Of a stretch of DNA of 40,804 nt, positions 2,051-23,681 are shown piece by piece. Position numbers and translations under genes: made by a program. The DNA comes from Escherichia phage mEp234: the sequence record PV340539, one strand, 5' to 3'. The notes under the pieces were generated by a model. The model ran no database searches and had not been told where the DNA came from. It saw only the letters and a program-made list of their open reading frames with translations. The stretch's first letter is position 1, and the number at the start of each line of letters is the position of its first letter.

Positions 2051-2218
2051 AGAAATCCCCGCGAGTGCGAGGATTGTTATGTAATATTGGGTTTAATCAT
2101 CTATATGTTTTGTACAGAGAGGGCAAGTATCGTTTCCACCGTACTCGTGACCTGCTCCCCGTTGATTAGTACACCCCGATGTTAGTAATGTCTTCATAAG
2201 CCACATGAGGACATCCCC

Positions 2219-2482
2219 ATGAAGAAGCGTTTTTCCGACGAACAGATCATCAGTATTCTCCGCGAAGCCGAAGCTGGGGTACCCGCCCGTGAACTCTGCC
2301 GCAAGCATGCCATTTCCGATGCCACGTTTTACACCTGGCGTAAGAAGTATGGCGGTATGGAGGTGCCTGAAGTTAAGCGCCTGAAGTCGCTTGAGGAAGA
2401 GAACACCAGACTCAAGAAGCTGCTTGCCGAAGCCATGCTGGATAAAGAGGCGCTTCAGGTGGCTCTTGGGCGAAAGTACTGA
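2219..2482 (+). CDS. IS3-family transposase OrfA (HTH DNA-binding part)
   Basis: 87 aa '[46 protein letters not shown]...' typical IS3/IS407 OrfA with leucine zipper. Confidence 0.9.
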
Positions 2483-2505
2483 CGACAGACCAGAAGCGGG
2501 AAGCC

Positions 2506-3339
2506 GTGATGTTGATGTGTGATGCGACCGGTCTGTCGCAACGTCGTGCCTGCAGGCTTACAGGTTTATCCCTGTCGACCTGCCGCTATGAGGCTCACCG
2601 TCCGGCTGCTGATGCGCATTTATCAGGGCGCATCACTGAGCTGGCACTGGAGCGCAGGCGTTTTGGCTACCGTCGTATTTGGCAGTTGCTGCGCCGTGAA
2701 GGGCTTCATGTTAATCATAAGCGCGTGTACCGGCTTTATCACCTCAGTGGCCTGGGCGTAAAACGCAGAAGACGTCGTAAAGGGCTGGCAACAGAACGTC
2801 TGCCGCTGCTCCGTCCGGCGGCGCCCAATCTGACCTGGTCGATGGATTTCGTCATGGACGCACTTTCCACCGGTCGCAGGATCAAGTGTCTTACCTGCGT
2901 CGATGATTTCACAAAGGAATGCCTGACGGTCACTGTTGCCTTTGGGATTTCAGGCGTTCAGGTCACGCGTATTCTGGACAGCATTGCACTGTTTCGAGGC
3001 TATCCGGCGACGATAAGAACTGACCAGGGGCCGGAGTTCACTTGCCGTGCACTGGATCAATGGGCCTTTGAGCATGGTGTTGAGTTGCGCTTAATCCAGC
3101 CGGGCAAGCCAACGCAGAACGGATTTATTGAGAGCTTTAACGGACGATTTCGCGATGAATGTTTGAATGAGCACTGGTTCAGCGATATCGTTCATGCCAG
3201 GAAAATTATTAATGACTGGCGGCAGGATTATAACGAATGCCGCCCGCACTCCACGCTGAATTATCAGACACCGTCTGAATTTGCAGCGGGCTGGAGAAAG
3301 GGTCATTCTGAGAATGAAGATTCCGACGTTACTAACTGA
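2506..3339 (+). CDS. IS3-family transposase OrfB (DDE catalytic domain); probably expressed as OrfAB fusion by -1 frameshift in 2446-2482
   Basis: 277 aa with '...[54 protein letters not shown]...'; frame -1 relative to orfA, open from 2446. Confidence 0.9.
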
Positions 3340-3368
3340 GTGTTGTATCTAATCGTGGGGGCAGGTCA

Positions 3369-3513
3369 CAACGGCGCTGTAGTTTGTCCATTCTTTCTTT
3401 TTTGTCTGGCGATCGTAATACTGAACGCCAGCACGGATGTTGAATCCGATATTTTCCCCGGCCTGAAACTCTCTTGCGGGCTTGTTTAGTCTTACAGTAA
3501 TCGAATGTGCCAT
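3369..3513 (-). pseudogene. 5' fragment (~48 codons) of a gene translationally coupled to erf, truncated by the IS element; weakly SSB/OB-fold-like
   Basis: ATG overlaps erf stop (TAATG); 'MAHSITVRLNKPAREFQAGENIGFNIRAGVQYYDRQTKKKEWTNYSAVV' then runs into the IS inverted repeat; no continuation beyond the IS. Confidence 0.45.
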
Positions 3514-18582: not shown

Positions 18583-18973
18583 CCATTACAAAGCCCAACT
18601 ACTGGTGGGCTTGATAATGAAACCGGAATTTATTCTGGGCAACCAGTTACGGCAGTACAGCGAAACAACCCAAGCCAGTAAGTGGGGAAATAACACTGGC
18701 AGCCACTGAAAGATGAACCTCCTGCCTTATGGCAAAAAAGATTCTTTGTGGTGGCGGACTGATGGAAAGACATCGGTTATTGCAGAGACCATTCAATGAG
18801 TGGTCTCGACAATAGCTTATACCCTACACGGGATAACTTAACTGATATCCCTTTTAACGGATAAACGGAGCCAACAATGGCAGAGATTATTCTCATGACT
18901 GAAGAACAGAAATTCCAGTTAGAGATTTACAAACTGGTCATGAACCAGAACGCCGCCGTGCATGGAGACTGGC

Positions 18974-19315
18974 ATGAACAAAGAGCCCCGCGTATATGGC
19001 AGCCGATGGGATAAGGCCCGTCTGCGTTTTCTCCAGCAGCACCCACTGTGTGTGATGTGCGAGCAGCAGGGGCGCATAACACCAGCAACGGTGGTCGACC
19101 ATATCGTGCCCCACAAACTGAAAGATGCGCTTAAGTCAGGTAACCCTCTGGCCATATCGAAAGCACAGCTCCTGTTCTGGAGTAAAGAGAACTGGCAGCC
19201 ACTGTGCAAAGCGCATCATGACTCAACGAAACAGAGAATGGAGAAGAGCGGCGCGGTAATCGGTTGTGATGCCAACGGCTACCCGCTCGATCCTGCGTCT
19301 CACTGGAGCACGTAA
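18974..19315 (+). CDS. HNH endonuclease (packaging-associated, upstream of terminase)
   Basis: '...RWDKARLRFLQQHPLCVMCEQQGRITPATVVDHIVPHK...WQPLCKAHHDSTK' HNH motif; alternative start 18962. Confidence 0.85.
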   Translation: MNKEPRVYGSRWDKARLRFLQQHPLCVMCEQQGRITPATVVDHIVPHKLKDALKSGNPLAISKAQLLFWSKENWQPLCKAHHDSTKQRMEKSGAVIGCDANGYPLDPASHWST

Positions 19316-19518
19316 TGAAAGACCTCATCATTGAATACCGAGACGGTAAGTTTGTTCAGCTGGCGATTGATGGCGTGGAGATGAAGCGCGTAACGTCTAT
19401 CCAGTTCTCCCACACCTTAGGCGAGGACGTACCGACATTGACCGTGTCAGGACATGTGTGGTCCGAGTATGGGAAAGGCGATCACAAACTCGAACAGGTA
19501 GACAAACATTCGGCATAG
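19315..19518 (+). CDS. Hypothetical small protein (67 aa)
   Basis: ORF coupled to HNH stop (TAATG). Confidence 0.45.
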   Translation: MKDLIIEYRDGKFVQLAIDGVEMKRVTSIQFSHTLGEDVPTLTVSGHVWSEYGKGDHKLEQVDKHSA

Positions 19519-19705
19519 CGCGGCGGCGGCAAGTAGATTATCTATCATGTGAAATCATTTCAAATGCAACGATATCAAATGAGAATGAATCGCATTCAGG
19601 GCAGGGGGGGGGGGATCAAATCTTCAAAACCTTTGCCCCAAATGACCGCCGCCAAAGTTTGAATTTAACGCTAACCCGATTTTTTTAGTTTTAAGGTGTT
19701 GACAT
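19519..19705. other. Candidate cos/packaging-recognition region between HNH and terS; contains G11 homopolymer (19604-19614) and GC-rich inverted repeats
   Basis: Position (HNH-cos-terS in HK97-like phages); 'gcgcggcggcggcaag' ... 'gaccgccgccaaag'; no ORFs. Confidence 0.3.
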
Positions 19706-20191
19706 ATGGCAGATAAACGAATCCGTTCCGACAGTTCGGCGGCAGCGGTTCAGGCCATGAAAAATGCAGCTGTGGACACCATCGATCCGCCGTCCCATGC
19801 AGGTTTGGAGAAAAAAGCCGAACCATTCTGGCATGACAATATCAGATCGAAAGCTCTGGACAGCTGGACGCCTGCCGACCTTCTAGCCGCCGTAGAACTT
19901 GCTAATAATCAGCTCTATATCACCGTTTTACGCAAGGATTTACGCAAAGAAGAGCGCATACGCGGGGAGGAGCGAGACGAAGGCCTTATAAAAGACCTCC
20001 GCAAGCAAATTGTTGAGCTACAACGAACTATCCTGGCTCAGCGCCGCGACCTCCAGATCCACTCCCACGCAACCAACGGCGAAAGTCGCGACCAGAAGAA
20101 ACGTAATCAGAACGATCGTGATGCACGGAATACCAAAAACGAGCATCAGGACCAGGACGATAACCTGATCGCCTTTCCCAAGCACGGATAA
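19706..20191 (+). CDS. Terminase small subunit
   Basis: 161 aa, directly upstream of terminase large subunit. Confidence 0.75.
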   Translation: MADKRIRSDSSAAAVQAMKNAAVDTIDPPSHAGLEKKAEPFWHDNIRSKALDSWTPADLLAAVELANNQLYITVLRKDLRKEERIRGEERDEGLIKDLRKQIVELQRTILAQRRDLQIHSHATNGESRDQKKRNQNDRDARNTKNEHQDQDDNLIAFPKHG

Positions 20192-20197
20192 AAGACT

Positions 20198-21712
20198 ATG
20201 ACGCGAGGTGAGCGTGTAATAGCGTTCATTGAGCGCTTTTGCATCGTGCCAGAAGGCAAGCTTATCGGCCAACCTATGCGGTTGGACCCCTTTCAGAAAG
20301 ATTTCATCCTGGCGGTTTACGACAATCCAGCCGGAACGGATATGGCGATCCTCTCCATCGCCCGAAAAAATGGTAAGACTGGCCTGATTGCCGGAATTCT
20401 GCTGGCTCACCTGGTGGGGCCTGAAGCGGTGCAGAACACGCAGATTGTCAGCGGTGCACTCAGCCGGGAACAGGCGGCCATCGTTTTTAACCTCGCGGTG
20501 AAGATGGTTAACCTGAACCCCAAGCTGCAGGAGATTGTGCACATTACGCCCAGCGGCAAAAAGCTGATCGGCCTGCCGTGTAACGTCGAATACAAGGCTT
20601 TATCCGCAGAAGGTAAGACGACGCACGGCCTTTCCCCCATTCTGGCCATTCTCGATGAAACAGGGCAGGTTAGGGGCCCGCAGGATGATTTTATCGATGC
20701 AATAACTACGGCGCAGGGGGCTCATGAAAACCCGCTGCTAATCGTTATCAGTACGCAGGCAGCAAACGATGCTGACCTGCTTAGCATCTGGATTGATGAT
20801 GCGGTCAAATCGAAAGATCCGCACATCGTGTGCCACGTTTATGAAGCGCCAAAAGACGCTGATATCAGTAAACGCGAGTCCTGGCTGGCTGCGAACCCGG
20901 CACTGGGAACATTCAGGTCAGAAAAAGACATGGCGCGCCAGGCTGAGAAAGCTGGCCGAATGCCAAGCTTCGAAAACACCTTCCGAAACCTCAACCTCAA
21001 TCAGCGCGTGTCTACCGTATCGCCGTTTATCTCCCGCAGCGTGTGGGAGCTTTGCGGAGAGATGCCGATTAACACCCCGAGGAAGTGGTACGCGGGGCTG
21101 GATCTGTCAGCCAGGAACGACTTAACGGCGCTGGTTATCGCTGGTGAAGCAGATGATGGTGTCTGGGATGTTTTCCCCTTCTTCTGGACACCGCAAAAGA
21201 CTCTTGAAGAGCGAACCAAAACGGACCGAGCACCCTATGACGTTTGGGTGAGGGAGGGGCTGCTGCGCACCACGCCAGGAGCTTCGGTGGATTACTCATT
21301 CGTCGTTGCGGATATCGCTGAAATTATCGGTGATTTCGACCTTACCTCGATGGCTTTTGACCGCTGGCGCATTGACCAGTTCAGGAAGGATGCCGATGCC
21401 ATTGGGCTGAGCCTCCCGCTGGTCGAGTTCGGCCAGGGCTTTAAGGATATGGGGCCAGCTGTAGACACGCTGGAGTCTCTGATGCTTAACGGGCGCGTGA
21501 GGCATGGCATGCACCCCGTATTAACGATGTGTGCTGTGAATGCGGTGGTGGTGAAAGATGCTGCTGGCAACCGCAAGCTCGATAAATCCAAAGCAACGGG
21601 CCGTATTGATGGCATGGTCGCAATGACAATGTCCGTTGGTGCTGCTAATGGGGAAGTTACCGAACAGGGTGGTGACTTCGACGACTTCATTTTCCGACCG
21701 CTGAGCATGTGA
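20198..21712 (+). CDS. Terminase large subunit (ATPase + nuclease)
   Basis: 504 aa, Walker A 'ARKNGKTG'. Confidence 0.9.
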   Translation: MTRGERVIAFIERFCIVPEGKLIGQPMRLDPFQKDFILAVYDNPAGTDMAILSIARKNGKTGLIAGILLAHLVGPEAVQNTQIVSGALSREQAAIVFNLAVKMVNLNPKLQEIVHITPSGKKLIGLPCNVEYKALSAEGKTTHGLSPILAILDETGQVRGPQDDFIDAITTAQGAHENPLLIVISTQAANDADLLSIWIDDAVKSKDPHIVCHVYEAPKDADISKRESWLAANPALGTFRSEKDMARQAEKAGRMPSFENTFRNLNLNQRVSTVSPFISRSVWELCGEMPINTPRKWYAGLDLSARNDLTALVIAGEADDGVWDVFPFFWTPQKTLEERTKTDRAPYDVWVREGLLRTTPGASVDYSFVVADIAEIIGDFDLTSMAFDRWRIDQFRKDADAIGLSLPLVEFGQGFKDMGPAVDTLESLMLNGRVRHGMHPVLTMCAVNAVVVKDAAGNRKLDKSKATGRIDGMVAMTMSVGAANGEVTEQGGDFDDFIFRPLSM

Positions 21713-23003: not shown

Positions 23004-23681
23004 ATGCCTGAAATCGTAAAAACGCTGTCCTTCGACGAGACAGAAATCAAATTCACCGGTGACGGTAAACAGGGGATTTTTGAAGGCTACGCCTCTGTTT
23101 TTAATAACACCGATTCCGATGGCGACATCATTCTGCCCGGGGCGTTTAAAAACGCGCTGGCGAACCAGACCCGAAAAGTGGCGATGTTTTTTAACCACAG
23201 GACGTGGGAACTGCCGGTTGGCAAATGGGACAGCCTGGCTGAGGACGAAAAAGGCCTGTATGTGCGCGGTCAACTTACCCCAGGACACAGCGGCGCCGCT
23301 GACCTAAAAGCGGCAATGCAGCACGGTACGGTTGAAGGTATGTCGGTTGGCTTTTCCGTTGCGAAAGACGATTACACCATCATTCCAACAGGCCGCATTT
23401 TTAAGAATATCCAGGCTCTGCGCGAAATCAGCGTCTGCACTTTCCCCGCCAACGAACAGGCTGGCATCGCAGCCATGAAAAGTGTCGATGGCATTGAAAC
23501 GATTCGTGATGTGGAGAACTGGCTGAGGGATTCAGTCGGCCTCACCAAATCACAGGCAGTTGGGCTAATTGCCCGGTTTAAGTCAGCGATTCGGAGCGAG
23601 TCCGAGGGCGACGGAAACGAAGCACAAATAAACGCTCTGCTTCAGAGCATCAAATCTTTCCCTTCTAACTTAGGTAAATAA
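23004..23681 (+). CDS. Prohead maturation protease (HK97 family)
   Basis: ~225 aa between portal and major capsid; track start 22992. Confidence 0.8.
   Translation: MPEIVKTLSFDETEIKFTGDGKQGIFEGYASVFNNTDSDGDIILPGAFKNALANQTRKVAMFFNHRTWELPVGKWDSLAEDEKGLYVRGQLTPGHSGAADLKAAMQHGTVEGMSVGFSVAKDDYTIIPTGRIFKNIQALREISVCTFPANEQAGIAAMKSVDGIETIRDVENWLRDSVGLTKSQAVGLIARFKSAIRSESEGDGNEAQINALLQSIKSFPSNLGK

Follow-up and report, generated by a model that had tools for sequence, protein, structure and literature searches.

A probable HK97-type cos site with a G-rich box in its upstream arm in the prophage form of Escherichia phage mEp234

Results and Discussion

Genes and features at the HNH–terS junction

The sequence analysed here (the window, 40,804 bases in its entirety) displays 100 % nucleotide identity to phage mEp234 (NC_019715, Wanchaivirus, Hendrixvirinae), including a run of eleven G residues (G11), with the sole exception of one 1222-bp insertion. 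All of the mEp234 genome is present, arranged as in a prophage and opened at the attP core: the window starts at mEp234 position 21098 (annotated attP core 21098–21110) and ends at 21099, with the cos region in the middle of the element. In contrast, the mEp234 record begins at the ATG of terS, leaves cos unannotated and is without the insertion, which is of the IS3 family and occupies 2148–3369. Around the region of interest the genes follow the order HNH (18962–19315), a 67-aa ORF (19315–19518), a gap of 187 bp, terS, terL, portal, prohead protease and major capsid protein. The order of HNH gene, cos and terS that an earlier note on this DNA had given for HK97-like phages is thus the one seen here. 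The individual features, numbered with +1 at 19657 where relative positions are given, are as follows.

18962–19315, plus strand: HNH endonuclease, homologue of HK97 gp74 (cos-cleavage accessory factor); Pfam HNH, phrog_2323 (3e-53), 101 of 102 residues identical to gp74.
19315–19518, plus strand: predicted 67-aa ORF between the HNH gene and cos, no assigned function; phrog_10282 (unknown function), 2e-47.
19549–19603, unstranded: moderately conserved upstream stretch containing the palindrome CATGTGAAATcATTTCAAATG and the motif AATGAGAATGAATCGCAT; 70–100 % per column in 94 close relatives, unalignable in distant ones.
19604–19614, plus strand: G11 run, −53 to −43 from the top-strand cut; local, uninterrupted version of the conserved G-rich box found in Hendrixvirinae cos sites; unique in the window, 6–13 in relatives.
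19615–19646, unstranded: conserved upstream arm of the proposed cos, ATCAAATCTTCAAAACCTTTGCCCCAAATGAC, ending at the bottom-strand nick (19646/19647) within an invariant AC/C; 90–100 % per column in 94 distinct sequences.
19647–19656, plus strand: predicted 10-nt 3′ cohesive end, CGCCGCCAAA; termini of the HK97, HK022 and HK75 records, HK75 annotation, PMC11331095 and PMC9410871.
19671–19685, unstranded: predicted TerS minimal binding site, CTAACCCGATTTTTT, +15 to +29; identical to the HK97 site, which is defined by EMSA and cryo-EM.
19706–20191, plus strand: terS (small terminase, HK97 gp1); 161 of 161 residues identical to PDB 8POP, the TerS:DNA cryo-EM entry, and to 6Z6E; phrog_5601.
20198–21712, plus strand: terL (large terminase, HK97 gp2); Pfam TerL_ATPase and TerL_nuclease, full-length match to PDB 6Z6D (1143 bits).

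The 67-aa ORF is annotated as "hypothetical protein" in both mEp234 and HK75.

Cleavage positions and TerS binding site

A megablast search with 19300–19720 matched 38 phage records. In the linear records of HK97, HK022 and HK75 the last base corresponds to window position 19656 and the first to 19657 (...ATGACCGCCGCCAAA / GTTTGAATTT...), the cleavage sequence ...ATGAC/CGCCGCCAAA/GTTTGAATTT of the window being that of the termini of these three records, and the HK75 record labels its final 10 nt, CGCCGCCAAA, as 'cos site'. HK97 virion DNA carries 10-nt 3′ overhangs (PMC11331095, PMC9410871). For HK633, HK140 and AsXd-1 the record ends ten bases sooner, at ...AAATGAC (window 19646). In HK140 (NC_019710) a single 44-nt foreign sequence, CCTATCCCCTGTGTGCCTTGAGAGACGCCGACTACTACGTCTCT, is found at the left end and its reverse complement at the right end, joined to GTTTGAATTT and to ...AAATGAC, respectively, and the 10-nt cohesive end is absent from the record. 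This 44-nt sequence starts with what we take to be 454 primer B and is probably a sequencing adaptor; we read the ends of HK140 as adaptors ligated to blunt-polished virion ends after loss of the 10-nt 3′ overhang. The adaptor junctions therefore provide independent physical support for nicks at 19646/19647 on the bottom strand and at 19656/19657 on the top strand. The HK633 record, which is also without the 10 nt, has an extra ACT at its start. At the cos junction of phage LMessi (PP925823), AAATGC is followed by the reverse complement of CGCCGCCAAAGTTTGATTTTAACGC and then by ATTTTAACGCTAACCC, an inverted duplication of the left end located exactly at cos, most likely produced by misassembly of the genome terminus.

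The cohesive-end sequence (positions −10 to −1) occurs in 28 variants among Hendrixvirinae-type cos sites, for example CGACGCCTAA, CGCTCGCATC and CGGCGCCAGC. The flanking AC/C and the TerS site remain constant while the overhangs vary, which suggests that the flanking elements, rather than the overhang sequence, determine where the nicks fall.

The minimal TerS site of HK97 spans +15 to +29, as established by EMSA and cryo-EM, with contacts involving T16, the G at position 21 and the A-tract (PMC11331095, Chechik et al. 2024). T16, the G opposite C21 and the A-tract of the HK97 site fit the window numbering when +1 is placed at 19657. The site is present in every TerS relative retrieved via the protein, a set in which its invariance is free of circularity; in the IMG/VR set, picked with the TerS-site pattern itself, the invariance is circular. 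In HK97, gp74 boosts cos cleavage in vitro (PMC11331095, PMC9410871). TerL cuts with the help of gp74, and rightward packaging halts at the next cos, where the motor is stalled by TerS bound downstream of the nicks (sources including PMC11331095 and PMC9410871).

The mEp234 gap lies between a gp74-type HNH gene and terS, upstream of the terL, portal, protease and capsid genes, and it combines the 10-nt 3′-end cleavage sequence with the TerS site at +15 to +29 and with the cognate TerS and TerL. The experiments were done on HK97, and since the termini, the TerS site, TerS, TerL and the HNH protein all match those of that phage, we assign the HNH–terS gap to the HK97 cos. We put at roughly 0.9 the probability that 19604–19705 serves as cos in a temperate phage of HK97 type (Hendrixvirinae), integrated as an mEp234 prophage; for the prophage, the argument from identity with HK97 is indirect, though very strong. 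The claim of the earlier note that this interval holds the packaging site is borne out by the termini at 19656/19657, by the TerS site at 19671–19685 and by a match of the TerS, TerL and HNH proteins to their HK97 counterparts that is complete or nearly so. Its description of a 'candidate' cos region was right as to location; what does not stand is the word itself, as the region is the known HK97 cos and the phage, mEp234, had already been sequenced. As a cos site, this well-characterised interval is nothing new.

According to papers citing Juhala et al. 2000, the cos of HK97 occupies the same place between gp74 (HNH) and gp1 (terS). The segment from the end of the G-run to the ATG of terS (19615–19705) is identical in the two phages, as are the overhang, the TerS site and the TerS protein. 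The differences comprise the length of the run (G9 in HK97, G11 here), a few substitutions upstream of it, a dissimilar left GC stretch and the location of the present site inside an integrated prophage.

Conservation across the HNH–terL region

Among nine diverged relatives the segment 19312–19611, which takes in the 67-aa ORF together with the left half of the gap, is the most variable part of the region from HNH to TerL, with a mean pairwise identity of 68–79 %. In contrast, 19612–19861 is the most conserved, at 96–100 % compared with 86–95 % in the terS and terL coding sequences. The same picture emerges from the alignment of 94 distinct sequences, in which 19608–19705 is conserved at 90–100 % per column. 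Distant lineages retain AAA/TTCA/GCCC/AC-C of the 19615–19646 arm, and it is uncertain whether the stretch at 19549–19603 forms part of cos.

The palindrome CATGTGAAATcATTTCAAATG is located at 19546–19566, and its core, TGAAAT(C/G)(A/G)TTTCA, is retained in close and mid-distance relatives and lost in distant ones. The annotations of mEp234 and HK140 include a minus-strand promoter-like site, TTGAAA-N15-GATAAT, equivalent to window 19537–19563. The promoter scan applied here needs a spacer of 16–18 nt, and this N15 site is therefore left uncalled; over 19200–19900 the promoter/terminator scan revealed no promoter-like site, and the sole terminator-like hairpin of that range is inside the 67-aa ORF, with none in the gap. 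Rfam at permissive thresholds returned no match. The IHF consensus WATCAANNNNTTR is matched in the window at chance level, with no match between the G-run and the nicks.

The block of nucleotide conservation of cos extends about 150 bp into terS. Across 61 distinct terS genes, codons 1–52 (19706–19861) display 0.10–0.11 synonymous differences per codon pair, against 0.25–0.31 in codons 53–130. The 5′ part of terS may thus be under DNA- or RNA-level constraint beyond that on the protein, for example as a further cos element or through effects on translation start.

Rarity and length variation of the G-run

The G11 tract at 19604–19614 is the only run of at least eight G or C residues in the 40,804 bases, and none of 100 dinucleotide-preserving shuffles of the window produced a G11; the run is far beyond chance. 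The longest uninterrupted run in the 94 distinct sequences is G6 in three, G7 in 23, G8 in 37, G9 in 21, G10 in five, G11 in four and G13 in a single case, HK75, with HK97 itself carrying G9. Phages that were sequenced twice agree (G9 and G9 in mEpX2, G8 and G8 in mEpX1, G11 in both the mEp234 record and the window), a relative with 99.93 % identity across 2.75 kb carries G9 instead of G11, and a single flanking haplotype, CATTCATGGCA, occurs with G6, G8, G9 and G10. The differences in run length are thus not merely sequencing noise and testify to repeated slippage. The earlier note had called the run unusual and slippage-prone and had proposed comparing its length among isolates; both descriptions hold, the comparison giving lengths from 6 to 13. 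Run length changes exclusively on the 5′ side, the 3′ edge being fixed. As the homopolymer differs in length between isolates, care is needed in the assemblies and cos annotations of these phages.

The G-rich box in distant relatives

TerS homologues of 60–88 % identity were retrieved via the protein, and their upstream regions were lined up on the TerS site. These 11 relatives, from Pantoea, Hafnia, Serratia, Yersinia, Providencia, Xenorhabdus, Salmonella, Sodalis and three further assemblies, all align without gaps from about −55 to +30. The addition of an IMG/VR pattern scan brought the number of distinct cohesive-end sequences to 28. In these 28 overhang lineages a G-rich box with the consensus GGGGGAGGG is found in ungapped register about 33–43 bp upstream of the bottom-strand nick. 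It contains 6–11 G in 13 nt, and in the 26 aligned lineages the GG at −48/−47 (19609–19610) is invariant. TAAA at −41 to −38 and AC/C at the bottom-strand nick are likewise in register across the lineages. In contrast, the 10-nt overhang and the spacer from +1 to +10 vary, and the flank 5′ of the box is unalignable. The prophage holds the box once. Judged from these alignments, the conserved box has become a pure, uninterrupted G-run, a derived state, in the HK97/mEp clade. In the searchable literature, which leaves older relevant papers outside its coverage, we found no description of a G tract in the HK97 cos, and none of a dissection of the upstream arm of this cos (−80 to −1).

Possible roles of the G-rich box

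After induction and formation of concatemers, the TerS nonamer would bind 19671–19685. TerL, together with the HNH protein encoded just upstream, would introduce the staggered nicks at 19646/19647 (bottom) and 19656/19657 (top), generating virion DNA with the 10-nt 3′ cohesive ends CGCCGCCAAA, and packaging would proceed rightwards into terS to end at the next cos. All these steps are transferred from HK97 by identity. The G11 run would then lie on the last-packaged side, and according to the comparison the whole subfamily keeps the box at one constant distance, with no gaps, from the nick and the TerS site. We consider it probable, on this comparative basis, that the box is a real upstream element that functions in cos. 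It would act as a duplex-DNA part of the upstream arm, positionally analogous to cosQ of phage lambda.

The lambda cos displays a three-part layout (cosQ, cosN, cosB) to which the present region can be compared, with the TerS-binding cosB, downstream of the nicks, corresponding to 19671–19685, cosN with its staggered nicks to 19646–19657 and the G-rich box to the position of cosQ. In lambda, cosQ is required for termination (PMC6739421, PMC7617512). The likeness of the box to cosQ is one of position, and lambda differs in its 12-nt 5′ overhangs, in having no HNH partner and in its unrelated TerS, which binds R-repeats. The box is a conserved element upstream of the nicks at the last-packaged end (−53 to −43, 28 overhang lineages). 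More tentatively, and by analogy, it might be a cosQ-like termination signal and as such a so far undescribed third component of HK97-family cos sites, a proposal to which we give distinctly less credence than to a role in cos as such. In that case TerL, the HNH protein gp74 or the portal could recognise the box in its duplex form on arrival of the motor at cos, and the pure G-run of the HK97/mEp clade would make packaging efficiency tunable by slippage. The tolerated lengths (6–13) speak against any element 5′ of the box depending on strict spacing or phasing. The box may also be dispensable, since TerS binding requires only +15 to +29 (PMC11331095) and packaging of HK97 in vitro is possible without cos (PMC9410871).

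As a possible alternative, the G-run might be a functionless, slippage-prone homopolymer beside cos that persists by recent common ancestry or by hitch-hiking with the cos core. Such a tract would be expected to vary freely in length, and the run does so from 6 to 13 with no visible compensation, the haplotype CATTCATGGCA alone carrying G6, G8, G9 and G10; the run also marks the left edge of the conserved block, and the requirements of TerS binding end at +15 to +29. A neutral tract would, however, be expected to decay or shift over the divergence sampled here. The box instead keeps the same gap-free distance where TerS is down to 60–80 % identity and where the overhang, the +1 to +10 spacer and the flank have changed, and GG at −48/−47 is invariant in 26 lineages. 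The persistence of the box in gap-free register across such deep divergence weakens this explanation, the main rival to a functional box, and we regard it as rather unlikely. The compared lineages are related, and shared ancestry could lie behind part of the conservation.

It is improbable that the G-run acts as a nucleic-acid structure or as a phase-variable switch, be it a G-quadruplex, an RNA element within the late transcript or a switch of reading frame or promoter spacing that controls a small ORF or terS. The late transcript passes through the region, contingency loci typically display length polymorphism, and G11 with the upstream GGG (GGGCAG11) formally provides the four G3 runs of a three-tetrad quadruplex. 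Most relatives, however, have G7 or G8, too short for four G3 runs, and a G-quadruplex was accordingly rejected as a conserved function. RNAalifold on the 26 lineages gave 0 pairs and no single-strand consensus fold and Rfam holds no matching family, and a structured RNA element was likewise discarded. For a contingency locus the length polymorphism itself is present, but the gap is devoid of promoter- or terminator-like sites and no supported ORF crosses the tract. The sole ORF spanning the run, 19458–19688, has no Pfam or PHROG family, is frame-shifted by length differences that are not multiples of three, and was rejected since indels in relatives are incompatible with its frame.

A functional upstream element, the reading we favour, gives the observation a modest value: in the upstream arm of the HK97 cos (−80 to −1), a G-rich box is held at a fixed register subfamily-wide. 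HK97 serves as the structural model of cos packaging, and recognition of the termination point by its motor is still under study, which makes the box a cheap and well-defined target for mutagenesis. The box and its decay into a length-variable G-run are a small observation.

The GC-rich arms and the mode of packaging

The earlier note had also described GC-rich inverted repeats flanking an AT-rich segment. The strings it gave are all in place, with gcgcggcggcggcaag at 19518–19533, G11 at 19604–19614 and gaccgccgccaaag at 19644–19657, and the segment between the arms is indeed AT-rich (GC 0.28–0.48 in 60-nt windows). The reading of the arms as an inverted repeat belonging to cos does not survive. 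A pairing of 19518–19533 with 19644–19657, as a cruciform or a protein-bridged loop delimiting the packaging signal, could draw on a perfect 8-nt complement, GGCGGCGG (19522–19529) with CCGCCGCC (19646–19653). The arms of this complement are, however, separated by 116 nt, and it is one of eight comparable inverted pairs in a stretch of 401 nt, chance alone predicting about one perfect 8-mer pair per 400 nt (400²/2/4⁸ = 1.2). The left arm, directly 3′ of the TAG stop of the 67-aa ORF, is GCGCCGCGGCGGC in HK97, unlike the window, and in many more distant relatives that retain the rest of cos the equivalent positions code for the end of a longer ORF (78 aa) of unrelated sequence. The right arm is the cohesive end, which varies in sequence between lineages. 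Pairing of the arms is thus very improbable; a functional inverted repeat or cruciform flanking cos was rejected, the left arm being absent or different in relatives and the complementarity not above chance. By this comparison the GC-rich 'inverted repeat' would have no role, consisting of the cohesive end and of lineage-specific sequence beside a stop codon.

Headful (pac) packaging, with the interval as a mere intergenic spacer, can practically be set aside, given the defined termini of HK97, HK022 and HK75, the adaptor-tagged ends of HK140 at the same positions and the unit-length cos packaging described for HK97 (PMC11331095, PMC9410871), and evidence in its favour was found nowhere in the material covered here.

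Related systems, the inserted element and distribution

Staphylococcal phages of the phi12/phiSLT type and lactococcal Skunavirus resemble the present region in that cos and the terminase genes adjoin an HNH gene, the product of which aids cos cleavage. Their terminases and cos sequences are unrelated to the HK97 type.

The 1222-bp insertion at 2148–3369 is located between mEp234 positions 23242 and 23243, within gp28 (similar to HK97 gp40). Its terminal inverted repeats, TGACCTGC(T)CCCC, and an ORF at 2506–3339 with rve, rve_3 and HTH_21 domains mark it as an insertion sequence of the IS3 family. Small indels, gccaacgcgacccgctc versus gccaacggctacccgctc, separate the HK97 record from the window near the 3′ end of the HNH gene (19280–19300). 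The gp74 annotated in HK97 displays another C-terminal tail (119 aa versus 117 aa here), identity ending after residue 102, a discrepancy that could be genuine or could stem from an early sequencing error on the HK97 side.

The cos region was detected in only 12 of 5426 complete E. coli genomes, in none of them at 99 % identity or above, a set with too few carriers for statistics on run length, and a scan of species-representative genomes gave two matches only. Prophages with an HK97-type cos are rare in sequenced E. coli, and this type of cos and TerS is found across many genera of Enterobacterales.
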